Shown piece by piece: positions 3,320 to 62,637 of a stretch of 64,000 bases of DNA; the stretch's first letter is position 1, and each line of letters begins with the position of its first letter. The stretch covers positions 3,520,001 to 3,584,000 of the forward strand of contig OY771506.1 in assembly GCA_963674705.1 (NCBI GenBank), written 5' to 3'. The position numbers were made by a program, and so were the translations under genes. This stretch comes from Phycisphaeraceae bacterium. Lineage in GTDB: Bacteria; Planctomycetota; Phycisphaerae; Phycisphaerales; Phycisphaeraceae. Below the pieces are notes generated by a model. The model had not been told where the DNA came from. It did not search any database and worked only from the letters and a program-made list of their open reading frames with translations.

Positions 3320-3392
3320 ACAGGCCCGCAAGGATTCGAACCTTGAATACCAGTACCAAAAACTGGGGTGTTACCATTACACTACGGGCCTA
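3320..3392 (-). tRNA. tRNA-Gln(TTG)
   Basis: reverse complement TAGGCCC...GGGCCTG acceptor stem, anticodon arm CCAGT-TT-TTG-GT-ACTGG, GGTTCGAATCC T-loop. Confidence 0.96.
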
Positions 3393-6069: not shown

Positions 6070-6579
<510 letters not shown>

Positions 6580-6616
6580 AACAAAGCCCGCGGTTTAAAA
6601 GCCGTGGGCTTTGTTT
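6580..6616. terminator. bidirectional intrinsic terminator
   Basis: aacaaagcccgcgg-tttaaaag-ccgtgggctttgtt hairpin between rnpB and the convergent gene. Confidence 0.7.
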
Positions 6617-40014: not shown

Positions 40015-41400
40015 ATGGCACGCACAATCAAATCAGGCAAAGAGCTGAGCTGGCACAAGGGCACCAAACGCTGGTACAAGACTCACAATGGCAAGCCATA
40101 CTACTTTGGCTCAGGTACCAGTGAACGTGACAGACGCAGCTATGAGGTTGCAGTCAGAAAGTATCATGCATGGCTAGATGAGCGTGAAAAAACAGAGAAG
40201 GCAGCCGGGGTGATACAGCTTATACCTGAGCTCATGCAGCTGCTGCGTCAAGTGGAGTACGGCAAGCAACCTGTGGCAGCTCTCGAGCAGCCCAGGTACG
40301 GGAATCTGGGCAAAATCGTGGCTAAAGATATTCGTGACAAGTGGCGTATTGATGACAAGGGCTACACCACCTTAGAGGGTATCGAGTTTGGCCCACTCTC
40401 AATGCAGCCACTTATTGATGCCGCACTCGGTGAGGTAGAGGCAGCTGGCCCTGCTACCCAGGCAGACAAGCCAGGCAAGAAGCGCAGCAACATAAACGGA
40501 CACATAGAAGCGTGGCTGGCTGAAGAGCAGACCAGGGTAGATGCTGGCCAGCTGACTGCTACAGCCCAGAGGGACAAGACAAACGGCATAGCTACGCTGC
40601 GTGAGTTTTGCGGTACACAGAGCTTTGGCAAGCCTGAAGACGTAGACCAGCTATGCCTGGACTACAGGCAGTGGCTGATGAGAAAAGTAGCGGCAGGCGA
40701 CTACTCAGCCAACACTGTGAACGACAAAACTAAGTTTGCAGGTCAGTTTATTGAGTATTGCTGGCAGCGAGCTGTAATCAAGCAGCTGCCACGCACACTA
40801 AAAGAGTTACGTAAGAAGCTACACACAGAAAAGAAGGGTAAGCCAATCAAACTTACAGACCTACACAAGATATGGCATGCCGCTGGCCCACGCATGAAGT
40901 GCTTTATAGCTATTGGCCTAAATGGAGGCATGAAAAATGGCGACATCTCAGCGCTCAAGGGCAGTAACCTGCAGGGTGATAGGCTGGTGGGCAAGCGCGA
41001 GAAGACTAAGAAGAGTAATGTACCCTACAACTATAAGCTATGGCCCCTTACGCAGAAGCTTATCAAAGACCAGCGTGACAGGACTGGTGACGATGAGCTG
41101 CTATTTGTGAACAAAAAAGGCGGGCGTATCACCACAGATAGCTTTAGCCGTTTGTTTAAGAGGGTGGCCAACAAAGCAGGCGTAGAGGCTACATTTGAGC
41201 AGCTCAGAGATACAGCAGCTGAATACGTCAAGCAAGAGCTATTTAAGCAGGGTGGTGAGATGGGCCCGCTACAAATCTTCTTGGCCCACAAAGACAAGAG
41301 CACAGCCAAGTATTATGTGTCAGACGATGAGGCACATCTCGTGGTGCCTAAGCTGGATAAGATCGTGATGGGCATGCAGAAGACGTTTGGCCTAAAGTAA
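40015..41400 (+). CDS. tyrosine recombinase / phage-type integrase (divergent)
   Basis: N-terminal arm-binding-like WYK...YFG, GLNGGMK..DI, REKTK, QLRDT, LAH, KYY; AAGGAG RBS; adjacent to tRNA. Confidence 0.85.
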   Translation: MARTIKSGKELSWHKGTKRWYKTHNGKPYYFGSGTSERDRRSYEVAVRKYHAWLDEREKTEKAAGVIQLIPELMQLLRQVEYGKQPVAALEQPRYGNLGKIVAKDIRDKWRIDDKGYTTLEGIEFGPLSMQPLIDAALGEVEAAGPATQADKPGKKRSNINGHIEAWLAEEQTRVDAGQLTATAQRDKTNGIATLREFCGTQSFGKPEDVDQLCLDYRQWLMRKVAAGDYSANTVNDKTKFAGQFIEYCWQRAVIKQLPRTLKELRKKLHTEKKGKPIKLTDLHKIWHAAGPRMKCFIAIGLNGGMKNGDISALKGSNLQGDRLVGKREKTKKSNVPYNYKLWPLTQKLIKDQRDRTGDDELLFVNKKGGRITTDSFSRLFKRVANKAGVEATFEQLRDTAAEYVKQELFKQGGEMGPLQIFLAHKDKSTAKYYVSDDEAHLVVPKLDKIVMGMQKTFGLK

Positions 41401-41493
41401 CAACGCCCCCGCTAGCACAAGGCATGAGCGCTTCCGGGGGCGTGGTTACGTCGGTATTTTTAATCTGCCGCATTGGTGGTCAAGACGCGACCC

Positions 41494-42588
41494 CTATTCG
41501 CTATGCAGTTCACTGAACAGGTCGCTAGTAGCCGCGAGCTCGTCGTCGCCTTGGGTCTCGCGGTGGCTATTAAACGCTACGAGCTCGCCGTCGTCGTCGT
41601 CGGACCACGGCTTAACCACATACTCGGCGGGGGGCTTCCCGACAAGGGCGTCTTCGATGTCGCTGTATAGGTCGCCACCTGCGGTTAGGTCGTCGGGCTC
41701 GCCATACTTCATAACGACGTCGGCGTTATTGCGGGTGCCGGTGACGACGGATAGATAATAGGACGGGCTAAACGATCCGACATCATCACAATCAGGGTCG
41801 AGGTTATTAGCTATGTTGGCCTCGACTAGCGGCAGCATCGCGTCGATACACAGGCCTAATAGCTTTTTCTTACCACCACGCCTTAGCGGGGTGCCTTCCA
41901 TCCAGTTACGCAGCCTGCTATCGAGCCATTTCTCGGCTTCACCCTTAATATCGGCTTTGCCCTGAGGGGCGCTAGGCGCCGCGCTAACGGGCTCAGGCTT
42001 AGCGGGTTCTATCGGACTGGCTTTGCGCTCGAGGCGCAGCTTGACTGGCTCTAGGCGCTCTGAACGGATCGGACGCTTCCACCTAAACTGCTCGAGCAGA
42101 TCGAGGTCGGCAGGCTCGGGCGACTTCTTACCATAGACAGCCTTAAACGCTTTCCACAGGTCGGGATGATCTAGGCTATTGACTACATGCTTAACGAGCT
42201 CGGGATTCGTGAACCCGCCCCGGAAGATTACTCGGCCGTCATGCTTCTTACCGTCGACCTTGGTCCCGGTGTCGACCTGGCCGTCGCCGAGCATATATGT
42301 ATTCGAGGTCTGTTTGCCGTCGTCGGTGGCACAGCGGGTAACCGTTAACACCCCTAACCATTCCAGCTCATACAGGGCACGCCGGATAGTGCTAAGGCTT
42401 TTTCCGGTACGCTTGGCTATGTTTGCTTGCGTATACCAGCAACAGCTACCAGGGCGGGACAGCTCGAATAAGACGCTAACGTGTCGGGGGGCGAGTCGAT
42501 GGAAGATCGGGGCTAGCTCGGCCGGTAGGCTGGCATAGCCGGGGGAATACTTACGAGGCGGGGAGTCTTTACGGTCTTTCGATTTCAT
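41494..42588 (-). CDS. helix-turn-helix protein, putative replication initiator
   Basis: CWYTQANIAKRTGKSLSTIRRALYELEWLGVL...QTSNTY, a typical HTH_36-like N-terminus of phage/plasmid Rep proteins. Confidence 0.7.
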   Translation of the reverse strand: MKSKDRKDSPPRKYSPGYASLPAELAPIFHRLAPRHVSVLFELSRPGSCCWYTQANIAKRTGKSLSTIRRALYELEWLGVLTVTRCATDDGKQTSNTYMLGDGQVDTGTKVDGKKHDGRVIFRGGFTNPELVKHVVNSLDHPDLWKAFKAVYGKKSPEPADLDLLEQFRWKRPIRSERLEPVKLRLERKASPIEPAKPEPVSAAPSAPQGKADIKGEAEKWLDSRLRNWMEGTPLRRGGKKKLLGLCIDAMLPLVEANIANNLDPDCDDVGSFSPSYYLSVVTGTRNNADVVMKYGEPDDLTAGGDLYSDIEDALVGKPPAEYVVKPWSDDDDGELVAFNSHRETQGDDELAATSDLFSELHSE

Positions 42589-51572: not shown

Positions 51573-51600
51573 TTGCTTTCCTAATTTAACAGTCTATGGT
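51573..51600 (+). promoter_or_regulatory. sigma70-like promoter of RNA motif copy 1
   Basis: TTGCTT-16 bp-TATGGT placing +1 at about 51607. Confidence 0.6.
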
Positions 51601-51606
51601 GTAGGC

Positions 51607-51748
51607 AGTGTTGGAGCCAACGCAGTGCTAGATCGGCTCCGGCACCGGATGACTGGATAAAGGGCAGGCGCTCAGGCGGCAGGCCCGTTAACAAGTAAGC
51701 CGATGTGGTTCACCACCTTAGGGTGCGGAACCACATCGGCTTTTTTTT
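51607..51748 (+). ncRNA. structured leader / ncRNA motif, copy 1 (ends in intrinsic terminator)
   Basis: conserved with 61579-61722; three hairpins, the last followed by T8. Confidence 0.8.
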
Positions 51749-51841: not shown

Positions 51842-52120
51842 ATGACCACGAAGAGCACACTGGATATCAGCCCATTGGGTACCGACAGCCGCTGGGAACA
51901 TATCGGGGAGAATCAGGGCTGCGCCAATCACGATCACGACCTCGTGCACGAATTGAGCCGCAGGCTGGATTCAGTCTGGCGATATGACCAGTTCATCGCT
52001 AACGCGGAAGGTCGTGAAGCACTTCAGGCCTGCTGGCGTGAATTCAAGGAACAGGATATGCGGAGCATCGTGCGGTTGAAGGAGATTTTGAAGGATGAGA
52101 TCAAGAATGGCTGCTTCTAA
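51842..52120 (+). CDS. small ferritin-like helical hypothetical protein
   Basis: HDHDLVHELSRRLDSVWRYDQF...WREFKEQD; AAGGGA RBS. Confidence 0.7.
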   Translation: MTTKSTLDISPLGTDSRWEHIGENQGCANHDHDLVHELSRRLDSVWRYDQFIANAEGREALQACWREFKEQDMRSIVRLKEILKDEIKNGCF

Positions 52121-52161
52121 AAGACGCATACCGATCTTTGCGACGATCGAAGAAGGATCTA

Positions 52162-52581
52162 ATGAATGAGAACCAACTAACGATGGCACAACAGGTGGCT
52201 CGTGCGGCCAGCGCTTACCAGTTGCGACGAACCGGACATGCCCCGAAAGCGGTGTCGGTCGTCCTGAGTGAAGGAACGCTGGTAATCACGCTTCACGGTG
52301 CTCTTACGCCGGCAGAACAGGCCTTGGCCATGAACCCCGAAGGCGCCGCACAGGTGCAGGATTTTCACCGCCAGCTCTTCGCCAACTCCTCGGATTCGCT
52401 CAGGCAGGAGATCAAGCGTATCACCGGGGTGGATGTGCGGGAAGCGGCATCGGAAGTCGAAACTTCCACCGGGACCGTGGTACACGCCTTTACCAGCGGC
52501 ACGATGGTCCAGGTGTTCCTGATGGCTGAAAACCTGACCGCGGAAACATGGAACGAAACTGTGGACATTAGGCAACCCTGA
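52162..52581 (+). CDS. DUF2294 / MpsC-family protein
   Basis: TGHAPKAVSV, LHGALTPAEQAL, LRQEIKRITGV pattern; AAGGA RBS. Confidence 0.85.
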   Translation: MNENQLTMAQQVARAASAYQLRRTGHAPKAVSVVLSEGTLVITLHGALTPAEQALAMNPEGAAQVQDFHRQLFANSSDSLRQEIKRITGVDVREAASEVETSTGTVVHAFTSGTMVQVFLMAENLTAETWNETVDIRQP

Positions 52582-52697
52582 CACCGGAGACCTGAGGATG
52601 GCGACGTATTCAATTGAACGACCTTGCGATACAGCCGGAATCCACGCGTGGATTGACGGCCCCTGGGAATCGCGCCGCGCTGCCATTTGTGCCGGTC

Positions 52698-52787
52698 ATG
52701 CCCCCGGCGTTCTCGTCCGACGACATCGTTCGGCGCGCGTTCGACATCTACGTCAAGAAGGGCCGCCAACAGGAGACCGCGACATGA
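52698..52787 (+). pseudogene. truncated DUF2934-like remnant
   Basis: frame encodes MPPAFSSDDIVRRAFDIYVKKGRQQETAT, similar to HDDISRRAYEIYIRSG of 58301-58507 but lacking the NWxxAE end. Confidence 0.55.
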
Positions 52788-52905
52788 AAGCTTGACGCTT
52801 GCTCGGCTAACAACATCACAATGCGGGGCTGGCGTGATACTGGATCGAAGTGATCACCTGGCGCGAGGTAACTAGGACTACAAGGGCACTACCTGAAAGG
52901 AAACG

Positions 52906-54480
52906 ATGATGGACCAACTCAATCAGCTTATGGTCGAGTTCTGGCAATATTTGCCGTATCTCGTTGGGGGCATTGCCGTCTTGGTGGTCGGTTGGATCGT
53001 GGCCTGGCTTGCAGGGAGTCTCACCCGCAGGTTGGTCAGTCGGACGCGCGTGGAGGACCGGCTCGGCGCGGCTATTAACAAGCAGTCCGGCGAGCGGACG
53101 CGACTTGCCCATTGGTTGGGCACATTGGTGTTTTGGATCATCCTGGCGATAACTCTGATCGGCGCATTGTCTGTCTTACAGCTGGCAGCGATTTCTGACT
53201 CGCTTCGTCAGGCCGTCGATGAGGTATTGCGGTATGTGCCGCAGTTGATTGCCGCGGGCATTTTGCTGCTGGCGGCTTGGCTCACGGCTGAAGTCCTGCG
53301 CTGGATCATCGTGAAGGCGTTGGAAAAGGCCAACCTGGGGCATCGACTCGGTGCCGCAGGCGGCAGCGTAACCAGAGCAGTGGGGCAGGAGTCGTCTAAA
53401 GTCACCGTGTCGCCGGAGGGTCAAAGCAGTGCAGTGACTGATTCCCATGACCTCGCTAAGACAATTGGCGATGTCGTGTACTGGACGGTGTTCCTCCTGT
53501 TCCTTCCCGCGATTCTTGGAGCTTTATCGCTCCAAGGCATTCTGGGACCGGTGCAGAGCATGGTGGATAAAGTTCTGGCCTTCCTACCCAACATCCTGGT
53601 CGCTGCGGTCATCTTGGGATTGGGCTGGTTCTTCGCGAGCATTCTCAGGCGGGTTGTCATTGGAATTCTGACCGCGTTCGGGGCAGACCGGTTGGGCAAT
53701 CGGATCGGGCTGAAGGCCGAGGATGGGAGGTCGGGGTCGATTTCTCACGTCGTAGGTTGGACGGTGTTCCTCCTGATATTGATTCCAGTGTTTCTCGCCG
53801 CACTTGATGCGTTGCGGTTGCAGTCGCTGACCCAGCCGACAAGCGAGATGCTCGCCCGAATCCTCAACGCGGTTCCGTCCATCTTCGCGGCCACTCTGGT
53901 GCTGGTGATCGCCTACGTCTTAGGCCGTATTATCAGCCAATTGGTAACGAAAATTCTGGAATCGGCGAAGTTTGACGCCTTGCCGGTAAAGCTGGGGCTG
54001 GGCGAAATGACGCCACAGTCGCAATGGGCGCCATCGAAGATGGCAGGCAGCCTGGTGTTGATCGCAATCCTGTTGTTCGCGACGATGACAAGCCTGGAAC
54101 TGCTGGGATTCGTGCAACTCTCGGCCATAATGACGAGTTTTCTGTATCTGGCGGGGCGCATTCTGCTGGGGCTGACGATCTTCGCGCTGGGGTTGTTTCT
54201 GGCCAGGATCGTCGGGCGCGCCATCACCAGTCGGGAGCACGAGTATGCATCTATCTGGTCATTGACGGCGCGAATTGCGATCCTTTTCCTAGCCGGCGCC
54301 ATGGCACTTCGCCAGATGGGCCTGGCGGACGAGATCATCTCTTTGGCTTTCGGCTTGACGTTTGGCGCCATGGCGGTAGCGGCGGCCATCGCCTTCGGGC
54401 TGGGCGGGCGCGACCTCGCGGGGCGGAAGCTTGAAGAATGGGAACAGCACCTTCGTGAGAGGCAGGAAGAGTCCAAATGA
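52906..54480 (+). CDS. mechanosensitive-channel-like conserved TM-helix repeat protein (CmpX-like)
   Basis: repeated YLP/YVP/FLP/AVP-TM units; C-terminal AAAIAFGLGGRDLA. Confidence 0.85.
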   Translation: MMDQLNQLMVEFWQYLPYLVGGIAVLVVGWIVAWLAGSLTRRLVSRTRVEDRLGAAINKQSGERTRLAHWLGTLVFWIILAITLIGALSVLQLAAISDSLRQAVDEVLRYVPQLIAAGILLLAAWLTAEVLRWIIVKALEKANLGHRLGAAGGSVTRAVGQESSKVTVSPEGQSSAVTDSHDLAKTIGDVVYWTVFLLFLPAILGALSLQGILGPVQSMVDKVLAFLPNILVAAVILGLGWFFASILRRVVIGILTAFGADRLGNRIGLKAEDGRSGSISHVVGWTVFLLILIPVFLAALDALRLQSLTQPTSEMLARILNAVPSIFAATLVLVIAYVLGRIISQLVTKILESAKFDALPVKLGLGEMTPQSQWAPSKMAGSLVLIAILLFATMTSLELLGFVQLSAIMTSFLYLAGRILLGLTIFALGLFLARIVGRAITSREHEYASIWSLTARIAILFLAGAMALRQMGLADEIISLAFGLTFGAMAVAAAIAFGLGGRDLAGRKLEEWEQHLRERQEESK

Positions 54481-54652
54481 GAATCGGATTGGATACAGGG
54501 AGACAGATGCCGCAGGGCACGGATGGATCGTGAATGAGCCGATCCATCCGCCGACGACGATCGAAGCCGCGACCGAGATTCAATGAAATACTCCAACGGG
54601 ATGAATCCTGTTGGCTTGATCGAGACCAACGAACCGTATTAAGGAACATGAA

Positions 54653-55483
54653 ATGACCCGTAACCCGATTCAGATCGTGACCCTGACCGCCGCCCTTGGC
54701 TTGCTTGGCGTATTCGCCATGGGTCAGACTCAAACTACCAGCCCGCCGGACATCGGTGCTGGACAAGGATACAAGTCCGCCGACGATTCCACCGTGAAGC
54801 CCGGCAAGCACGCTGATGGCATGAGGGAACATATGAAGGGCATGATGGAGAATATGCCGGATGACACGAAGATGCGCTGTCAGATGCAGATGAACATGGT
54901 GGTCAGTCCCAGCGACCCGAGCGCCATCCTGGCCCTGAAGGATCAACTCCTACTCACCACAGACCAGACCACGGAGTTGGATGCCATCATCAAGGAGGCG
55001 CGGACCCAAGCGGTTGCCGTGCTCAATGCCGACCAGCAAACAATGTTGAACACTCTGCCGCAGACACCTCATACGATGAAAGTTCTGCACGAGAAAATGA
55101 TCAGCCAGATGCAACCGATGAGGACAACGACACCGAGCAACAAGCCAATGGATTGTCCCGTGATGCAGATGATGCGGGATCAGGCCTCGTCAACGACGCT
55201 GCCAATATCCGGCTCACCGTCTATGGCGCCGACTGATAAGACAGCCATTGAACCCAAAACCGCCACCGATGTCTTGGACAGCGGTGACGCTAACACGGCC
55301 AAGGCGGCTACGCTCCTCAGCCAACTCGAGCAATACACCACCGATAACAAGATCGATCTTGCCGAGAAGACACTCAACCAACTCGACGGGATGGAAGGAT
55401 TGCTCCCCGCATCACTCCAGAGCCAGATCGAGACCGCTCGGACGGCACTGAAAGCGAAACAAGCGGCGGCAACCATGTACTAG
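54653..55483 (+). CDS. secreted Met-rich Spy/CpxP-like protein with extra C-terminal helical domain
   Basis: signal peptide; LLLTTDQ and VLNADQQ (LTxxQ-like) motifs; Met clusters. Confidence 0.7.
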   Translation: MTRNPIQIVTLTAALGLLGVFAMGQTQTTSPPDIGAGQGYKSADDSTVKPGKHADGMREHMKGMMENMPDDTKMRCQMQMNMVVSPSDPSAILALKDQLLLTTDQTTELDAIIKEARTQAVAVLNADQQTMLNTLPQTPHTMKVLHEKMISQMQPMRTTTPSNKPMDCPVMQMMRDQASSTTLPISGSPSMAPTDKTAIEPKTATDVLDSGDANTAKAATLLSQLEQYTTDNKIDLAEKTLNQLDGMEGLLPASLQSQIETARTALKAKQAAATMY

Positions 55484-55605
55484 TCGTGATACGAACTTGA
55501 TTCGACGGCCTCAGCTTAACCTAGATGTCGCATGACTACGCGTCGTAATACTCAGATTTTTCGCGCATGTTACTGAAACACATTAACCGCAAAGAAACAA
55601 GGAAC

Positions 55606-56202
55606 ATGACAATGTCTCGCCACCTGATTGTGACCGTGATTCTAGCCACCACCATGCTTGTCGGCTGCGGCCGCGAGGAACCCAAGTCGACACCGCAGAC
55701 CAAAGCCGCCGCATCTCGCAGCGCTGTGGAGGATGCGGCCGCTAAGGCCGCAATCGATACAAAGAAGGCAGCGGACGCCAAAATCGCTGCTGATACAAAA
55801 ACGGCCACTGCCGTAAAGGTGGCTGCTGATCGGGCCGCAGCCGACACAAAGAGCGCGGCAGACGCAAAGATCGCCGCGGATCTCAAGGCCGCTGAAGTTG
55901 CCAAGGCTGATGCCGATCAGGCAGCCGCCGACGCCAAAGCCGCACTCGATCAAAAGACGGCCGCCGATGTTAAGGCCGCCGCAGAGGTTAAAGCGGCCTC
56001 TGATCAAGCTACAGCAGAGGCGAATTCGCTTCTCACGCAGGTACAGCAGTACATCAAGGACAACAAGTACGAGCTTGCGGAGCAGACACTCGACAAACTC
56101 GACGGCATGAAAGGCTCGCTACCGGTATCGCTCCAGAACCAGATCGAAACCGCACGGACAGCCCTCAAGGCAAAACAAGTAGCCGGAATACTGCCGAAGT
56201 GA
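55606..56202 (+). CDS. Ala/Asp/Lys-rich lipoprotein
   Basis: lipobox LVGC; AADxK low-complexity repeats; C-terminal domain shared with the upstream ORF. Confidence 0.8.
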   Translation: MTMSRHLIVTVILATTMLVGCGREEPKSTPQTKAAASRSAVEDAAAKAAIDTKKAADAKIAADTKTATAVKVAADRAAADTKSAADAKIAADLKAAEVAKADADQAAADAKAALDQKTAADVKAAAEVKAASDQATAEANSLLTQVQQYIKDNKYELAEQTLDKLDGMKGSLPVSLQNQIETARTALKAKQVAGILPK

Positions 56203-56287
56203 TTTGGATAAGTGTTGGCAAATACTGCTTGCTTTGATTCATCTTGGGCGTAAGAACTGCCCAGATACCAACCTTGGAAGACACACC

Positions 56288-57172
56288 ATGAAGGACCATG
56301 ACATCCAACGAGATCCAGAAAGCATATTAACGGCTCCTAATAATGGATCAAGAAGGTCCGTATCGGACAATCCACCTCAGACGCCGAATGCCGGATCGCA
56401 TCACGCGATTAAGCAGCGGATGACGGAGGCCGAACAGCGGGCTATACAGCTGTGTAAATTAGCCGTCGAGCTGAAACAAGACAATGCGCGGGATCGCCGG
56501 GACCTGGCCCGGGTTCTGCGTGACGACCTCCAGCAGACGCTGGTGGCGGCTTACCTGTGGGTCAGGATGACAAGGACGAAGGACACGGAGCAAGCATTGA
56601 AAGAGGCCCTTGAACCCGTGGAAGAATTGATCAGTCAAGGCCTTGTCACCCTGCGCTCGCTGGCCAGTCAATTGAGCCCTCAGCTTCTCTATGAGAGCAG
56701 CTTCGTCTCGGCCCTGGCGTGGCTGGCTCGTGAGGCGCAGGCAATGCATGGCATGGAGGTCAGCATCAGTGCAGATCCACATGTCGAGCCAAGCACTCAA
56801 GAGGTGCGTTCCGTCCTGTTCCGCGGCGTTAAGGAACTGCTGTTCAACAACGTCAAGCACACACCGGTACGGACCATATCGATCACGGTCATACGGGCTG
56901 TGGATAAGCTGCGCGTGACCGTGGATGGCCGGGGCGTAGGTTTTAATCCCACCGGATCTGAAAACACAGCCGACGGAGGTTTCAGCTTGATTTTGATACG
57001 TGAATGCCTGACCTATCTGGGTGGGAGCCTGGAGTTGAATGACACTCCCGGGCATGGGACCCGGGCCGAGTTTGTAATCCCGCAAGAACCACGAGAACAC
57101 AAAACAAGCATGCCTAGATTAGTAGCTAAAGCCTGTGTGGCGCAAAACAGTACACATCATTGTAAGGAATAA
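56288..57172 (+). CDS. NarX/UhpB-type (HisKA_3) histidine kinase-like protein, degenerate
   Basis: LARVLRDDLQQ (H replaced by R), LSPQLL, ELLFNNVKH, DGRGVGF, PGHGT. Confidence 0.75.
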   Translation: MKDHDIQRDPESILTAPNNGSRRSVSDNPPQTPNAGSHHAIKQRMTEAEQRAIQLCKLAVELKQDNARDRRDLARVLRDDLQQTLVAAYLWVRMTRTKDTEQALKEALEPVEELISQGLVTLRSLASQLSPQLLYESSFVSALAWLAREAQAMHGMEVSISADPHVEPSTQEVRSVLFRGVKELLFNNVKHTPVRTISITVIRAVDKLRVTVDGRGVGFNPTGSENTADGGFSLILIRECLTYLGGSLELNDTPGHGTRAEFVIPQEPREHKTSMPRLVAKACVAQNSTHHCKE

Positions 57173-57176
57173 AGAT

Positions 57177-57719
57177 ATGACGGATCACAACTCGGTCGTA
57201 GGTATTTTCGAATCGCACAAAGCCGCCGAAGACGCAGTTAAGGAATTACAGCGCAGCGGAATGAACATCAAGAAACTGTCACTCGTCGGAAAGGACTACC
57301 ACACCGATCAGCACGTGGTCGGGTACTACAACACGGGCGACCGTGTGATGTACTGGGGCAAGCAGGGCGCCTTCTGGGGCGGCATCTGGGGGCTGCTGTT
57401 CGGGTCGGCGTTCTTTTTTATCCCCGGGATCGGGCCGTTGGTAATTGCCGGCCCGCTGGTCAGCATGATCGTGGGTGCGATGGAGGGCGCCGCGGTTGTT
57501 GGTGGTCTTAGCGCTGTGGGTGCGGGGCTGTACAGCATGGGCGTCCCCAAGGACAGCATCATCAAGTACGAGACCGCCATCAAAGGCGGCAAGTTTGTCC
57601 TGGTCTACCACGGCACGCATGAAGAAGTCGAGAAGACACATGTGATCCTCGATCGTGCCGAAGCCGTGGAAACATCGTTGCACTTGTATGAGCCGGAGAC
57701 AAGCGCGTTGACACAATGA
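57177..57719 (+). CDS. general stress membrane protein (DUF1269/YflT-like)
   Basis: AEDAVKELQRSG, WGKQGAFWGGIWG, IPGIGP, glycine zipper. Confidence 0.85.
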   Translation: MTDHNSVVGIFESHKAAEDAVKELQRSGMNIKKLSLVGKDYHTDQHVVGYYNTGDRVMYWGKQGAFWGGIWGLLFGSAFFFIPGIGPLVIAGPLVSMIVGAMEGAAVVGGLSAVGAGLYSMGVPKDSIIKYETAIKGGKFVLVYHGTHEEVEKTHVILDRAEAVETSLHLYEPETSALTQ

Positions 57720-57815
57720 CCGCATAGGGTGCATCACTGTCACCCGTCCAGGATCAGGACTTGAACGTGTAGAAACTGGTATGAACGGATTCACCCAATG
57801 TAAGGAGGCAGCATC

Positions 57816-58112
57816 ATGTTGGTGTTATCCCGAAGAAGCCATGAATCGGTGATGGTCGAAAACCCTGACGGTTCGGGTTCCACACTCAAAGTCACAGTAT
57901 TAAGGTCCAGGGATGGCGAGGTCACACTGGGCTTTGAAAGCCCGGTCCGACTCGCCATTATCCGAAAGGAGGACTGGAACCGGATCCGTAACAATGTCCT
58001 GGAAAACTATCCATCCAATTTCCCTCGTCGCAAGAAATTACGGACAACGGTCCGCCGCGACGTTCAAAGCGACCGCCTCTTGTACAAATCATATACATCG
58101 AAAGGAAACTGA
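57816..58112 (+). CDS. csrA: carbon storage regulator CsrA homolog with C-terminal extension
   Basis: MLVLSRR..ES, VTVL, VTLGFESP, IIRKE; AAGGAGG RBS. Confidence 0.85.
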   Translation: MLVLSRRSHESVMVENPDGSGSTLKVTVLRSRDGEVTLGFESPVRLAIIRKEDWNRIRNNVLENYPSNFPRRKKLRTTVRRDVQSDRLLYKSYTSKGN

Positions 58113-58114
58113 TC

Positions 58115-58267
58115 ATGTTATGGACTATTGCAGTCATTACCGTCATGTTATGGTTACTTGGATTACTCACCTCTCACACGTTCGGCGGTGTTCTTCACAT
58201 CCTGCTTGTGATCGCATTGGTCACGGTGGTTATTCAAGTAATCCAGAATCGAAGAATATCGGCGTAG
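58115..58267 (+). CDS. lmo0937-family small membrane protein (missed by the ORF track)
   Basis: MLWTIAVITVMLWLLGLLTSHTFGGVLHILLVIALVTVVIQVIQNRRISA; AAGGA RBS. Confidence 0.88.
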   Translation: MLWTIAVITVMLWLLGLLTSHTFGGVLHILLVIALVTVVIQVIQNRRISA

Positions 58268-58300
58268 AACGGTTATACACATATTTAATGGGCATGTGAT

Positions 58301-58507
58301 ATGAAGACAAACAAGAAACAATCAGAGACATCCATGCGTTCAGCCTCGCGTCAGGAGTATCACTTCCCGCAAGCCGGAGTCCTCAAGCCATCTCACGACG
58401 ATATCAGCCGTCGCGCATATGAGATCTATATAAGAAGTGGCTTCATTCAGGGCCGGTGTCAGCATAACTGGCATCAAGCGGAGTGCGAACTGCAAAGGAA
58501 CAAATAG
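58301..58507 (+). CDS. DUF2934 domain protein
   Basis: DDISRRAYEIY...G...NWHQAECEL. Confidence 0.85.
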   Translation: MKTNKKQSETSMRSASRQEYHFPQAGVLKPSHDDISRRAYEIYIRSGFIQGRCQHNWHQAECELQRNK

Positions 58508-58658
58508 AAGGAGCAAAAACCGGCGATAAGTCAGCCTATGGCACCCGAGGCAAATGTCGGTCTACAACCAGGCGGAAACGGTCGCCGGCCTTATGGGGAG
58601 AAGAGGCCGGTGCCTCCCGCCTGGTGAATACTTGAAGTGTATAGAAAGGAAACCCCTT

Positions 58659-58823
58659 ATGGGACTGATTCTGCTCATCATCGTGATTCTATTGCTTGTT
58701 GGGGCTCTGCCCAGGTGGGGGCACAGCCGGAATTGGGGGTACTACCCCAGTGGTAGCTTAGGACTGGTTCTTATGATCCTGGTTGTGCTGTTACTGATGG
58801 GGTATCTGCCCAGGGGTTTTTGA
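58659..58823 (+). CDS. DUF3309-family small membrane protein
   Basis: LLVGALPRWGHSRNWGYYPSGSLG; AAGGA RBS. Confidence 0.9.
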   Translation: MGLILLIIVILLLVGALPRWGHSRNWGYYPSGSLGLVLMILVVLLLMGYLPRGF

Positions 58824-58877
58824 ACGACCAACCCCGTATCAGATCCGATTCTCAACATGCCCTAATAAAGGTGACCT

Positions 58878-59114
58878 ATGAAAACCATATTGATTCTGTT
58901 TGTTCTAATCATTGTAGTCGGTGTGGGCTTGGGCTATTACCGGGGCTGGTTCAATGTATCTTCAGACAACACTGAGGGCACTCACAACGTTACCGTGTCG
59001 GTGGACGCCGGCAAGATCAAGGCCGACAAGGACGAAGCGGTAGACAAGGTACAAGACCTGGGACGCAAATCGGAGGACAAGGCCGAACCAACGCCCAAGA
59101 CGGGGCAGGAATAA
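58878..59114 (+). CDS. small membrane-anchored hypothetical protein
   Basis: TM helix then YYRGWF...VSVDAGKIKADK. Confidence 0.75.
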   Translation: MKTILILFVLIIVVGVGLGYYRGWFNVSSDNTEGTHNVTVSVDAGKIKADKDEAVDKVQDLGRKSEDKAEPTPKTGQE

Positions 59115-59275
59115 ACCGCTCCAGTACAGAAGTACCACAGGCAAGATTGGATCAACGGATCCACGGCCACCCCAAATAAAAACTCTGCACTAACGTAGAT
59201 CGCAGGATACTGAATGAAACCGGTGAGTCTGGCTGACCAGGCCCCCTGTCAAACAAGCGAAGAAGTAAGCAAACT

Positions 59276-59992
59276 ATGAAATCAACTCTCACCATCATGG
59301 CGACGGGTACCATCCTTGTTGCCGCTGGATACACCTCGGCCATGTCCCTGTCTGGCGACGTAAATATGGTTCACTCGCCCGTCTCCGTACAGGATGGCGA
59401 CCGGACCAACAACCATAAGGCACTGCTCTTCACTGAGCAGAACAATACCGCCCTTGGCGGTAACCTTAAAGTCGAGGCTTACCTCCCAGGCAAATATGAT
59501 GGCTTGGCTGCCACGGCAGGCCGTACACTCGCCGCGGGACGCACGGTCAGCAGCTACATGCTCCATGCCGATGTCGATTCTGATGGCGTTACGCCTGTAA
59601 TGATGACAGGCAGCATCAGCTTCAACGAGAAGATCCTGGGTGTGATCTTTGGGAACTTCGATGCCAGCGACGCCCTCTTGGGAGCCCCAGGCACCTCATA
59701 CGAGTCAACCAGCGGTCACGGGCTGGACTTCAACGATCCCAATGGTGATATGTTCCGCATCAGCAAGAACCGCATGCGGTTTGACTTCAGCTTCACTGTC
59801 AGCGGCATCACCGACCAGATCCGTATCATCACCGCAGGCAATACCACCCCGTCGGATTCGAGCGGGAACCCGATCCCTGAGCCGGTTACAACGACGCTGT
59901 TGGCCATGGGTCTTGGTGGCTTGACACTGCGCCGCCGGCACATCGAAGGATCGACAAAACGTTTGAACGTGACTCGTACAGCGCCTACATAA
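59276..59992 (+). CDS. PEP-CTERM sorting domain protein
   Basis: signal peptide; IPEPVTTTLLAMGLGGLTLRRR. Confidence 0.88.
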   Translation: MKSTLTIMATGTILVAAGYTSAMSLSGDVNMVHSPVSVQDGDRTNNHKALLFTEQNNTALGGNLKVEAYLPGKYDGLAATAGRTLAAGRTVSSYMLHADVDSDGVTPVMMTGSISFNEKILGVIFGNFDASDALLGAPGTSYESTSGHGLDFNDPNGDMFRISKNRMRFDFSFTVSGITDQIRIITAGNTTPSDSSGNPIPEPVTTTLLAMGLGGLTLRRRHIEGSTKRLNVTRTAPT

Positions 59993-60024
59993 AAAAAGGG
60001 ACAGCCAACTCAAAGGAGGACGGC

Positions 60025-60267
60025 ATGTACAAAATGAAACATTTATCCCCTGGGTCAAGAACTCACGGACGGCAGCCACACACTTCGGGAGTGATGTCCT
60101 ACCGCCAGATCGCTGAGGTCCTCGAAGAGCTCGAAGGCGAACCGATCAGCGCGGACCGCGTGGCACATATCTGCAGGGAAGCCGAATGGAAAATCGTGGA
60201 TGCGGTAGAAGCAGACCCTATGCTCGGCAAAAGATTCAGGTCGGTACTAGATGTGAACACCAATTGA
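60025..60267 (+). CDS. stand-alone sigma-70 region-4-like HTH protein
   Basis: MSYRQIAEVL...ISADRVAHICREAEWKI; AAGGAGG RBS. Confidence 0.65.
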   Translation: MYKMKHLSPGSRTHGRQPHTSGVMSYRQIAEVLEELEGEPISADRVAHICREAEWKIVDAVEADPMLGKRFRSVLDVNTN

Positions 60268-60357
60268 GGTGTTCGCGGCATCTGAGTATGTATATCTCAA
60301 ATGTAAAGTAGTTTGCTGTCAATGTTCATGTCCGTCGCACAACGTTTGGAATTTACC

Positions 60358-60576
60358 ATGAGTATTCAAAAAATAAGTGGGTTCGTCCTTTTTATAATTG
60401 GTGTAATCCTGTTGATCAACGGGATGGACACGTCAGGCTCTGTGACTGATCGGCTGAGCAACATATTTACCGGGCACTTCACTGAAGCCACGACGTGGTA
60501 CATCATTTCTGGTATCGCTTCTGTGGTCGGGGGCCTGATGCTGTTTTTGCTCGGTAGCCGCAAGGCCCTGGTGTGA
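60358..60576 (+). CDS. DUF3185-family membrane protein
   Basis: two TM helices flanking SVTDRLSNIFTGHFTEATTWYI. Confidence 0.85.
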   Translation: MSIQKISGFVLFIIGVILLINGMDTSGSVTDRLSNIFTGHFTEATTWYIISGIASVVGGLMLFLLGSRKALV

Positions 60577-60715
60577 GTTTCAAGTCGATCCGTCGCGATC
60601 GGTCGGACGGTGCGGATTGGTCGCCGGAAACGTATCCGGCGGCATGGATTCAAGACAAAAATCGCTACCCGGACCTTGTCCGTGTGGCGTCAGAATGACT
60701 TTGAAAGGTCATGCT

Positions 60716-61264
60716 ATGAAAAAGTATCATATGTCATTAATGTTAGCTGGCATGATCGTTTTGCTGGCACTAAGTGCCTGTTCCACAGCGCCCAGTTCGG
60801 TGGCAGGCAAAGCCGACATCGAATCAGATGCAGCGGTGGCGCTGGCCAAGGCTAAGAAAGCCGATACCACTCTGATCAAGGTATTCGATTCGGCCGCAGG
60901 TTACGCGGTGTTCCCATCGGTCGGAAAAGGGGCCATTGGGGTTGGAGGAGCGTACGGTAAGGGCGTGCTCTACGAGCGAGGCGTCGCCGTGGGCTACTGC
61001 GACCTCAGCCAGGCATCGATCGGCTTGCAACTCGGTGGGCAAGCGTACACGGAGATCATCGCGTTTGAAACCAAAGCGGCCGTTAAGACCTTCAAAGAGG
61101 GCAAGTTCCGCTTCGACGCCCAAGCCTCGGCCGTGGCATTGAAGTCAGGCGCTGGGGCGAATGCCAAGTATACAAACGGTGTGGCTGTCTTCACGATGGA
61201 CGAGGCGGGCCTGATGTATGAGGCCTCCATCGGCGGACAGAAGTTCAGCTACCAGGCCAAGTAA
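60716..61264 (+). CDS. YSC84/SYLF lipid-binding domain lipoprotein
   Basis: lipobox LSAC; YAVFPSVGKG, GGAYGKG, GLQLGGQ, GLMYEASIGGQKF. Confidence 0.88.
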   Translation: MKKYHMSLMLAGMIVLLALSACSTAPSSVAGKADIESDAAVALAKAKKADTTLIKVFDSAAGYAVFPSVGKGAIGVGGAYGKGVLYERGVAVGYCDLSQASIGLQLGGQAYTEIIAFETKAAVKTFKEGKFRFDAQASAVALKSGAGANAKYTNGVAVFTMDEAGLMYEASIGGQKFSYQAK

Positions 61265-61333
61265 CCAGCCACTTCGACCGTCCGGAACCGTTCCCGGGCG
61301 GCGATGTTCTGAGCTGTCAAAAAGGAGACGACC

Positions 61334-61471
61334 ATGAATATGCACAAGATTATGATCGCGGTAACACTGCTTGCGGTACTGACAGTCACGTTGTCGTTGA
61401 CCGCATGCAACACATGGAAGGGAGCCGGTAAGGACGTTGAGAGGACGGGCGAAGTCATGCAGGGCGAATGA
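61334..61471 (+). CDS. entericidin A/B family lipoprotein (missed by the ORF track)
   Basis: MNMHKIMIAVTLLAVLTVTLSLTACNTWKGAGKDVERTGEVMQGE; AAGGAG RBS. Confidence 0.9.
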   Translation: MNMHKIMIAVTLLAVLTVTLSLTACNTWKGAGKDVERTGEVMQGE

Positions 61472-61544: not shown

Positions 61545-61572
61545 TTGACTTGTACGCATTGACCGCTATTAT
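61545..61572 (+). promoter_or_regulatory. sigma70-like promoter of RNA motif copy 2
   Basis: TTGACT-16 bp-TATTAT placing +1 at about 61579. Confidence 0.65.
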
Positions 61573-61578
61573 TGACCG

Positions 61579-61722
61579 AGTCAAGGAGTCAATATTTTAC
61601 ACGTATACGACTCCAACTTCGGATGACTAGCTAAGGGGCAGGTCGCAAACGGCGACAGGCCCGTTGAAGAGTAAGCCGATGTGGTTCAGCACTAAAGGTG
61701 CCGTGCCACGTCGGCTTTTTTT
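61579..61722 (+). ncRNA. structured leader / ncRNA motif, copy 2
   Basis: conserved with 51607-51748, with compensatory changes; terminator followed by T7. Confidence 0.8.
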
Positions 61723-61743: not shown

Positions 61744-61926
61744 ATGACTGGCTCTAGAACAATGACAAGAGGATTGGCAACCCGACAAATCCGAAACCTG
61801 CCGGTAATCGATACCGCAGGTGCCGTGATCGGTATGATCTCGCTTGGGGACCTGGATGCCCACGACCTCGGCGGCCAGCTGTTGGAGAATCACTATCTGA
61901 AGAAGTATCTCTACGCCCGCAATTAA
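61744..61926 (+). pseudogene. single-CBS-domain fragment (likely 5'-truncated CBS pair protein)
   Basis: QIRNLPVIDTAGAVIGMISLGDL is one CBS repeat; no partner repeat and no clear RBS. Confidence 0.6.
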
Positions 61927-61989: not shown

Positions 61990-62637
61990 ATGAACAAAGA
62001 TAATCATCCCAAATCAACTAACACCGTTACTCAGATCAACACGAATGCGTCTTCGCAGAAAGCTCTGGACGGTTGGGCGACCGACGGTGGAACAATGAAA
62101 CGGATTAAGACAGCCGGTCGACCTTCTGGTACGACGCACACGATCAATCCCGCTGTTCTTAAATCACTAAACAAGCAGATCCAGCACGAGCAGTGCAACG
62201 CACACACCTATCAGGCCGTGTCTTTGTACTTCGGGAGCATCAATCTTCATGGGATTGCGGCATTTATGGAGCATCAGGCCGAAGAGGAAAGGCAACATGC
62301 GTGGAAGCTCATCCGGCATGCAGTTGACCGAAAGGCGCAGGTGGAGCTCGGGTCTATACCAGCTCCTGATGTGGACTACGCTTCACCCTTGGAAGCGGCT
62401 GTATCAGTTGCGGAACTTGAGCGAACCACGTCACAGATGATCAATCAACTATGTCAACTGGCCCGTGACGAGGGCGACTATGCCTTGGAGGTCCTGCTTC
62501 ATTGGTATATCACAGAGCAGGTTGAAGAGGAGAAGTGGTCACAGGAGTTGGTGGAACTTATTGAGAGACTTCAGGACAGGCCCGGTTCGCTATACATGTT
62601 AGACGACGTATGGGGCAAACGCCTCATAGAAAAATAA
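61990..62637 (+). CDS. ftnA: non-heme ferritin
   Basis: LNKQIQHE, QAEEERQHA, WYITEQVEEE ferroxidase ligands. Confidence 0.88.
   Translation: MNKDNHPKSTNTVTQINTNASSQKALDGWATDGGTMKRIKTAGRPSGTTHTINPAVLKSLNKQIQHEQCNAHTYQAVSLYFGSINLHGIAAFMEHQAEEERQHAWKLIRHAVDRKAQVELGSIPAPDVDYASPLEAAVSVAELERTTSQMINQLCQLARDEGDYALEVLLHWYITEQVEEEKWSQELVELIERLQDRPGSLYMLDDVWGKRLIEK

Follow-up and report, generated by a model that had tools for sequence, protein, structure and literature searches.

The window, the whole 64,000-nucleotide stretch of Phycisphaeraceae DNA that we analysed, carries on its forward strand two copies of one arrangement, in which a predicted promoter is followed by a structured leader, an intrinsic terminator and co-directional genes. 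In copy 1, a sigma-70-type promoter is predicted from TTGCTT (51573-51578) and TATGGT (51595-51600), separated by 16 nt, a pattern that recurs before homologs of the leader. It is followed by P1, a predicted 5′ hairpin at 51608-51645 with a GGAGCC (51613-51618)/GGCTCC (51635-51640) core; by a hairpin at 51646-51702 that is the conserved core of the element and that we call the antiterminator hairpin on the strength of its nascent-RNA fold, its conservation among homologs and compensatory changes; and by an intrinsic terminator at 51698-51748, with a 15-pair stem, an inner hairpin and eight Ts at 51741-51748, whose predicted fold includes the strongest covarying pairs. CGGATGACT sits at 51646-51654 and AGTAAGCCGATGTGGTTC at 51694-51711, and the outer stem of hairpin P2, with its AG/AG loop, pairs GGGC (51662-51665) with GCCC (51683-51686). 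Copy 2 has the same layout at 61545-61722: a predicted promoter (61545-61572; TTGACT, 16 nt, TATTAT) precedes a leader at 61585-61722, scoring 111.7 bits with the covariance model described below, in which P1 occupies 61585-61614, the antiterminator hairpin 61619-61679 and the terminator 61674-61722. The forward strand of the window has exactly two occurrences of each of two diagnostic motifs, where 0.04 and 0.01 would be expected, and folding z-scores are -5.8 for copy 1 and -6.0 for copy 2, with none of 200 shuffles equalling them. All the sequence features named in the preliminary description of this DNA lie at the positions it gave, including a sigma70-like promoter at 51573-51600; a promoter scan at its thresholds listed the copy 2 promoter only, and neither of the long terminators.

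The first gene 3′ of copy 1 (51842-52120, forward strand) encodes a 92-aa protein without a Pfam family, homologs of which separate the leader from mpsC-B at another host locus and in two further genomes (G004 and G161). It has a conserved stretch rich in His, Cys and Asp and is possibly a ferritin-like or metal-binding stress protein. The second gene (52162-52581, forward strand) encodes a 139-aa MpsC/DUF2294 protein of type B (PF10057, E 2.5e-22), and would be under leader control if the leader is an attenuator. The rest of the cluster (52598-61471, forward strand) comprises, by Pfam, mechanosensitive-channel-like, histidine kinase, YflT, CsrA, DUF2934, DUF3309, DUF3185, Ysc84 and entericidin-like genes; gene orientation agrees with the earlier claim that everything from 51842 to 61471 is co-directional. 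Behind copy 2, the first intact gene is Ferritin/Dps-like (61990-62637, forward strand; PF00210). It is preceded by a 60-aa remnant (61744-61926) that starts like the leader of the mpsC-B-like gene behind matching copies elsewhere (L001:10990 and L215:10340) and has a weak CBS match in mid-sequence; a deletion here likely placed the ferritin gene under copy 2.

The conserved segment between P1 and P2 had been described as single-stranded; we predict instead that it pairs with the foot of the terminator arm. In the predicted fold, CGGAUGACU pairs with AGUAAGCCG at the terminator 5′ foot, forming a long irregular antiterminator hairpin that in copy 1 runs, from base to apex, through CGG-AUG-ACU/AGU-AAG-CCG, a 3x3 loop, UAA/UUA, an A·G mismatch and P2 (51662-51686). 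GGA-N-GACU and AGUAAGCCG are nearly without variation across the 141 distinct homologs: GG pairs with CC and ACU with AGU, flanking a symmetric ANG/AAG loop, and a second 3x3 loop, a helix of three pairs, an A·G mismatch and P2 follow towards the apex. The terminator 5′ foot (GCCG) is common to the antiterminator hairpin, and since the CCG of the hairpin is the foot of the terminator 5′ arm, the two folds are mutually exclusive. For an RNA ending just past the hairpin, the antiterminator was the lowest-energy fold in five of the six copies in the host genome; for the full-length RNA, the terminator was better by 7.5-11.0 kcal/mol across copies (8.0 in copy 1), meaning that, on these computed energies, the default state would be OFF.

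Covariation speaks for part of this structure. In an alignment of the 141 homologs that was itself fitted to the covariance model, 17 of the 20 most covarying column pairs were proposed pairs; a tree-aware test with a home-made null left three pairs at E<0.05, two in the terminator and one in P2, with none in the basal helix. The basal helix is near-constant in sequence and hence untestable by covariation within the leaders of this kind, which we term type I. Its outermost pair is formed in 64% of homologs, and the basal stem of copy 1 is short. Two further elements of the preliminary description lost their place in the model: P1, taken there as a defining part, is optional, GGAG..CTCC being found in 42 of 137 homologs, and ATCGGCT, put forward as an antiterminator, is present in 17 of 137, gives the lowest-energy early fold in one of six genome copies and would be transient in copy 1.

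A promoter-like pattern, TTG-N15-19-TAnnnT, lies upstream of 100 of 137 homologs, with TTGCTT the most frequent -35, compared with 4 of 137 behind the terminator, 8 on the opposite strand and 13.6 in shuffled sequence. Within 220 nt downstream, a ribosome-binding site with an open reading frame follows on the same strand at 104 of 133 elements, as against 26 of 133 in the antisense control; where that gene is mpsC-B, its match starts 20-68 nt past the T run in 32 of 45 cases. The promoter pattern upstream and the gene start downstream favour a leader over a free sRNA and, together with the overlapping alternative fold, support the original proposal of a cis attenuator placed before co-directional genes; we regard this role as very probable. 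Among 35 hand-picked open reading frames behind type I leaders, the labels were CsbD, DUF892, ferritin, DUF3309, YtxH, BON, hibernation factor, sigma factors, KaiC-like and desaturase, with several carrying no label.

Two copies 10 kb apart had been reported; both are real, and the genome holds six in total, on contig C1 at 2014919, 2016865, 3571646 (copy 1), 3581620 (copy 2), 3585678 and 3604947. They head clusters encoding MpsC, ferritin, Hsp20-GroES-GroEL, a fatty acid desaturase, glycosyltransferases and a kinase-regulator pair. The two copies near 2.01 Mb belong to a second, part-duplicated cluster (G000:C1:2014350-2021000) with a divergent mpsC-A, two leaders, two mpsC-B-like genes, a desaturase, a CBS protein, a GroEL-like protein and a radical SAM protein. 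A covariance-model search for relatives had been suggested, and a model built from 11 sequences found matches at E<=0.05 in 36 of the 144 family genomes, of which 26 reached E<1e-10; the ten weak matches (E 1e-7 to 0.04) were kept out of the strong set, and the four of these that we viewed resemble decayed copies. In an even sample of the phylum, 5 of 151 genomes matched, four strongly. A pattern scan of species genomes gave at least 137 stretches, of which the model confirmed 69 of 80 with flanks and 47 of 57 others; among the matches listed, every model-confirmed record is planctomycete by title, and distinct homologs across Planctomycetota number more than 140. Limnoglobus roseus is one carrier that is in culture. 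Among viral contigs, a loose pattern gave 120 stretches, of which 80 were screened with the model and none matched, and an MpsC scan gave two loci, neither with an RNA match at E<=0.001.

The spread is patchy, with strong matches in 2 of 11 genomes of the genus. A tyrosine integrase and a helix-turn-helix gene lie about 10 kb upstream of the cluster (40015-42588), an integrase-core IS gene is found at L002:9594-10223, and the G+C content of the cluster is slightly below the genome mean. The nearby integrase and IS genes and the presence in 2 of 11 genomes suggest that the cluster is mobile.

The leader had not been matched to any catalogued family, and this stands: Rfam at its gathering threshold returned nothing for the leader in the window, where its only matches were RNase P class A RNA (6071-6582) and a tRNA (3321-3391); an E-value search with the copies gave best local E-values of 0.36 and 1; and ten homolog loci gave five matches, every one below gathering. 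A literature search covering the main texts of openly accessible papers found no description of the leader or of an MpsC-RNA pairing, and term searches of the main texts of PMC8632094 and PMC7266159 returned nothing relevant.

What does track the RNA is MpsC/DUF2294, which had been named as a candidate partner. PF10057 occurs in 26 of 144 family genomes, that is, in 23 of the 26 with a strong RNA match and 3 of the 118 others; the three strong-RNA genomes without it are drafts (G012, G068 and G135), and one genome, G060, has MpsC and no strong RNA match. Among the matches listed for loci found from the RNA pattern alone, mpsC lay within 2.5 kb at 38 of 69 confirmed loci, overlapping loci being counted separately, versus 0 of 11 unconfirmed ones. 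For the 31 confirmed loci without a nearby mpsC, one of which overlapped a positive locus, 30 genomes were searched and 29 encode MpsC elsewhere; MpsC was found in 0 of 11 control genomes, most of which are from other phyla. We conclude that the element is a real, uncatalogued attenuator RNA tied to MpsC/DUF2294.

MpsC comes as two paralogs, A and B, 30% identical, and these occupy different positions. Of 133 elements, 45 have a type B gene downstream in the sense orientation and none has one in antisense; 44 have a type A gene upstream in divergent orientation and eight have it upstream in tandem. Either type lies within 900 nt of 69 of 124 fully flanked elements, the other 55 being without one. 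Being mostly divergent or upstream, mpsC-A falls outside the controlled transcript, the position expected of a regulator, and since the host's stand-alone type A gene is at the 2.014 Mb locus (C1:2014350-2014688), away from copy 1, its product would act on that copy in trans. DUF3309, a gene of the cluster, is likewise associated with the RNA (20 of 26 RNA-positive genomes versus 9 of 118 others), so a stress cluster that travels together accounts in part for the co-occurrence of MpsC at the genome level; what speaks for MpsC is its fixed position and its persistence where the stress genes are gone.

We saw that persistence outside type I. In the phylum sample MpsC occurs in 14 of 151 genomes, and of the ten that have it without a strong RNA match, eight carry, right behind mpsC, a type II leader: GG-CAG-AUY/RAU-ARG-CC with its own promoter-like site and a terminator. 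Two type II leaders precede genes that we take, from a motif, to be PEP-carboxykinase-like, and at L405:589-2424 (G169) an MpsC domain forms the N-terminus of a GTP-type PEP carboxykinase behind a variant leader. In Bacillota, sampled as the phylum of a Clostridia genome, MpsC is present in 93 of 301 genomes, and it is also found in Bacillus subtilis. At the best 30 Bacillota mpsC loci the planctomycete model matched 21 at E<=0.005; in 16 of these the match follows mpsC within 200 nt on the same strand, and in three it stands just before the gene. Because terminators commonly end genes, these matches were inspected by eye, and the core was seen in 17 matches at 16 Bacillota loci. In a plasmid collection, two of three mpsC loci (Acetoanaerobium and Anoxybacillus) have the top match directly behind mpsC, and the Staphylococcus locus has no clear leader. 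The Anoxybacillus plasmid has another long structured leader with a terminator-like end before mpsC (L413:5820-5990), so that two terminators flank mpsC ahead of a bicarbonate transporter, and the Staphylococcus pettenkoferi plasmid has an IS-flanked mpsABC-type operon with a terminator-like hairpin and T run before the first gene (L414:1452-1490; RNA model E about 1).

Sequence comparison across the groups also bears on the helix that is constant within type I. The first pair of the inner helix is A-U in 134 of 138 type I rows and, in 19 Bacillota rows, A-U in 13, U-A in three and G-C in one; the second is C-G in 133 of 138 type I rows and, in eight type II rows, U-A in five and mismatched in three, the Bacillota and type II rows having been picked by eye. 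Pair counts from the Bacillota alignment were set aside because that alignment includes chance matches fitted to the structure. Between groups, the changes in the helix thus appear compensatory. A quick tree built from 53 MpsC-A proteins places the 25 that adjoin type I RNA together on one side of a branch with SH-aLRT 100 (one long row being unsure), and the type II and Bacillota proteins fall apart from this clade; G059, from the same family as the host, has type II RNA together with type II MpsC-A. On these sequences the RNA subtype follows the MpsC-A clade and not host taxonomy, a concordance that is equally expected from co-inheritance alone. The targets differ as well: of 17 genes scanned behind Bacillota leaders, four are PEP carboxylase, two PurE, two SbtA bicarbonate transporter and one a CO dehydrogenase subunit.

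The predicted structure of MpsC-A (pLDDT 89.6) runs helix, two strands, three helices, two strands. A sequence search of solved structures found no relative, the ESM Atlas returned only MpsC clusters and Foldseek with the model gave no match at E<=0.001; in a fold search the best match was VIA (Z 6.8), with the RNA-binding RbfA at Z 6.0, level with unrelated folds, no match stood out from background, and HutP, CAT and ANTAR were not among the matches listed. With a median pI near 6.3, MpsC-A is not basic overall. Across phyla it conserves a GRGP motif, Lys68 and Arg71, which are replaced in type B; Arg25 is a further conserved residue of MpsC-A. Longer MpsC homologs carry a receiver domain in 48 of 120 cases and PAS, PilZ or MarR in others, a set of partners typical of an output domain. 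The host genome has, downstream of its sixth leader (G000:C1:3606416-3610487, equivalent to L003:6417-10488), a CheB-CheR-PAS-HWE histidine kinase followed by a 293-aa receiver-MpsC fusion. Passages of PMC6689103 report that Staphylococcus aureus can do without mpsC both in growth, the deletion mutant being normal in air, and in the function of MpsAB, and that mpsA is down-regulated at 5% CO2; this dispensability removes a role in transport, and equally counts against MpsC as an essential activator of mpsAB there.

We wondered how this pair compares with established antitermination systems. The RAT, as passages of PMC12591593 describe it, is an irregular stem-loop in the leader that partly overlaps the intrinsic terminator and is held by a protein; like the RAT sites of BglG, SacY and LicT, with their CAT domains, our leader has an irregular hairpin overlapping a terminator, with several leaders and, here by prediction, one trans-acting regulator. 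Unlike them, its hairpin is about 57 nt rather than about 30, its partner is MpsC/DUF2294 and there is no PTS link; CAT (PF03123) was not found in the host genome, the one genome searched (96.6% complete; the control was found in 4 of 14 genomes), nor did MpsC proteins match it. The same paper describes the ANTAR output domain occurring alone or fused to a receiver domain, and MpsC likewise occurs alone or fused. In contrast to ANTAR proteins (AmiR, NasR and EutV), which bind dual hairpins, MpsC is linked to one long hairpin with an optional P1 and is an alpha/beta domain without an ANTAR Pfam match; PF03861 gave no match in the host genome and its control likewise matched nowhere.

HutP of B. 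subtilis, again from passages of PMC12591593, is a small, four-stranded alpha/beta protein that stands alone and is encoded ahead of the terminator it controls, resembling the mpsC-leader-target order of Bacillota and type II loci. HutP destabilises its terminator through two clusters of three NAG triplets, whereas the MpsC-linked leader keeps a separate antiterminator hairpin and the MpsC model has a different order of elements; PF09021 was absent from the host genome, the one genome searched, and its control was found in B. subtilis. Terminator-type riboswitches, the DUF1646 (Na+) and other curated classes included, share the promoter, conserved structured domain, overlapping intrinsic terminator and co-directional genes, but no Rfam model fits the leader, and what constantly accompanies it is a protein family rather than a pathway. 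MpsC is not mentioned in the text of PMC12591593. By analogy, the leader most likely works like RAT/BglG or ANTAR antitermination while belonging to neither.

We propose MpsC-dependent antitermination, in which MpsC-A binds the nascent hairpin and keeps the terminator from closing, and consider this probable. A promoter-proximal leader whose antiterminator hairpin and intrinsic terminator overlap would be a default-OFF attenuator: the modelled hairpin would form first and then be invaded by the terminator 3′ strand, and unassisted transcription would halt at 51741-51748. MpsC of type A, acting in trans on six leaders, may bind the invariant purine-rich internal loop (GG-ANG-ACU/AGU-AAG-CC) and hold the basal GG/CC pairs long enough for read-through. 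More tentatively, the input here might be general stress, arriving partly through the receiver-MpsC fusion and its histidine kinase, and in Bacillota and other planctomycetes the RNA-MpsC pair might guard CO2/bicarbonate genes. Type B MpsC, whose gene would usually be switched on first and which lacks the conserved Arg/Lys of type A, could, speculatively, be a feedback partner or an inhibitor. Counting against a role for MpsC are the lack of a recognisable RNA-binding fold, the elements without mpsC within 900 nt and the co-travel of DUF3309.

Invariant purine-rich internal loops within a terminator-overlapping fold would also suit a new riboswitch, with the hairpin as aptamer for a ligand such as CO2/bicarbonate, an ion or a stress nucleotide and with mpsC only a regulon member or neighbour; the CO2/bicarbonate-related Pfam labels of 9 of the 17 genes behind Bacillota leaders, and mpsC-B itself lying downstream of the leader, point the same way. 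We consider this unlikely: the conserved core amounts to a single unbranched hairpin in which some 15 bases are invariant, its loop bases differ between subtypes (ANG versus CAG), the downstream genes change wholly between subtypes, from stress to carboxylation, while mpsC is constant, and mpsC-A is mostly outside leader control. Of the two forms of antitermination originally offered, ligand-dependent and protein-dependent, we therefore favour the second.

A protein-dependent attenuator might be run by something other than MpsC, such as a co-inherited stress-cluster gene or a general RNA-binding or Nus-type factor, with MpsC separate, for example as a sensor acting on that factor. The DUF3309 distribution and the fold of MpsC leave room for this, yet mpsC is the one gene whose placement next to the RNA holds in type I, type II and Bacillota loci alike, and we judge such a factor improbable. 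Less probable again, though raised at the outset, is a stand-alone sRNA of about 140 nt, possibly a decoy titrating MpsC, with downstream genes using their own promoters: a promoter-like site of its own, a strong terminator and several copies per genome would fit it, but the same-strand gene starts, the short distance from T run to mpsC-B, the near-absence of the promoter pattern behind the terminator and the conserved alternative fold all make it very doubtful beside protein-dependent antitermination. CsrA, proposed earlier as a binding partner and encoded by a paralog within the cluster, is the least credible controller of termination through the GGA, for although CGGA(U/A/C)G resembles a CsrA site, such sites consist of several unpaired ANGGA motifs, whereas the leader has a single conserved GGA that is predicted to be paired and is GGC in type II, an A two bases before GG occurs in 5 of 141 homologs, and CsrA is present in 143 of 144 family genomes, which makes it uninformative on partnership since it does not track the RNA.

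Taking MpsC-dependent antitermination further, the pieces can be joined into one reading, to which we give somewhat less than an even chance. MpsC/DUF2294 would be an RNA-binding antiterminator domain that has gone unrecognised, with this hairpin as its target, and the two would join CAT/RAT, ANTAR and HutP as a new family. Ancestrally, the pair would sense CO2/bicarbonate supply and gate carboxylases and bicarbonate transporters, as in Bacillota; in planctomycetes it would have been turned into a mobile, multi-copy regulon for general stress that operates through control at the RNA level, with two-component input through receiver-MpsC and an induced, binding-dead MpsC-B as feedback. Such a reading offers a testable function for a widespread family misnamed after a transporter that does not need it, defines an uncatalogued regulatory RNA, and bears on how heterotrophic bacteria tune genes for CO2/bicarbonate uptake and carboxylation and on how planctomycetes control the general stress response. 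With a 126-aa protein and a 57-nt hairpin, the system is small and could serve as a portable ON switch. At two loci, L304:2495-2728 and L372, leaders stand back to back in tandem, possibly as a two-step gate.
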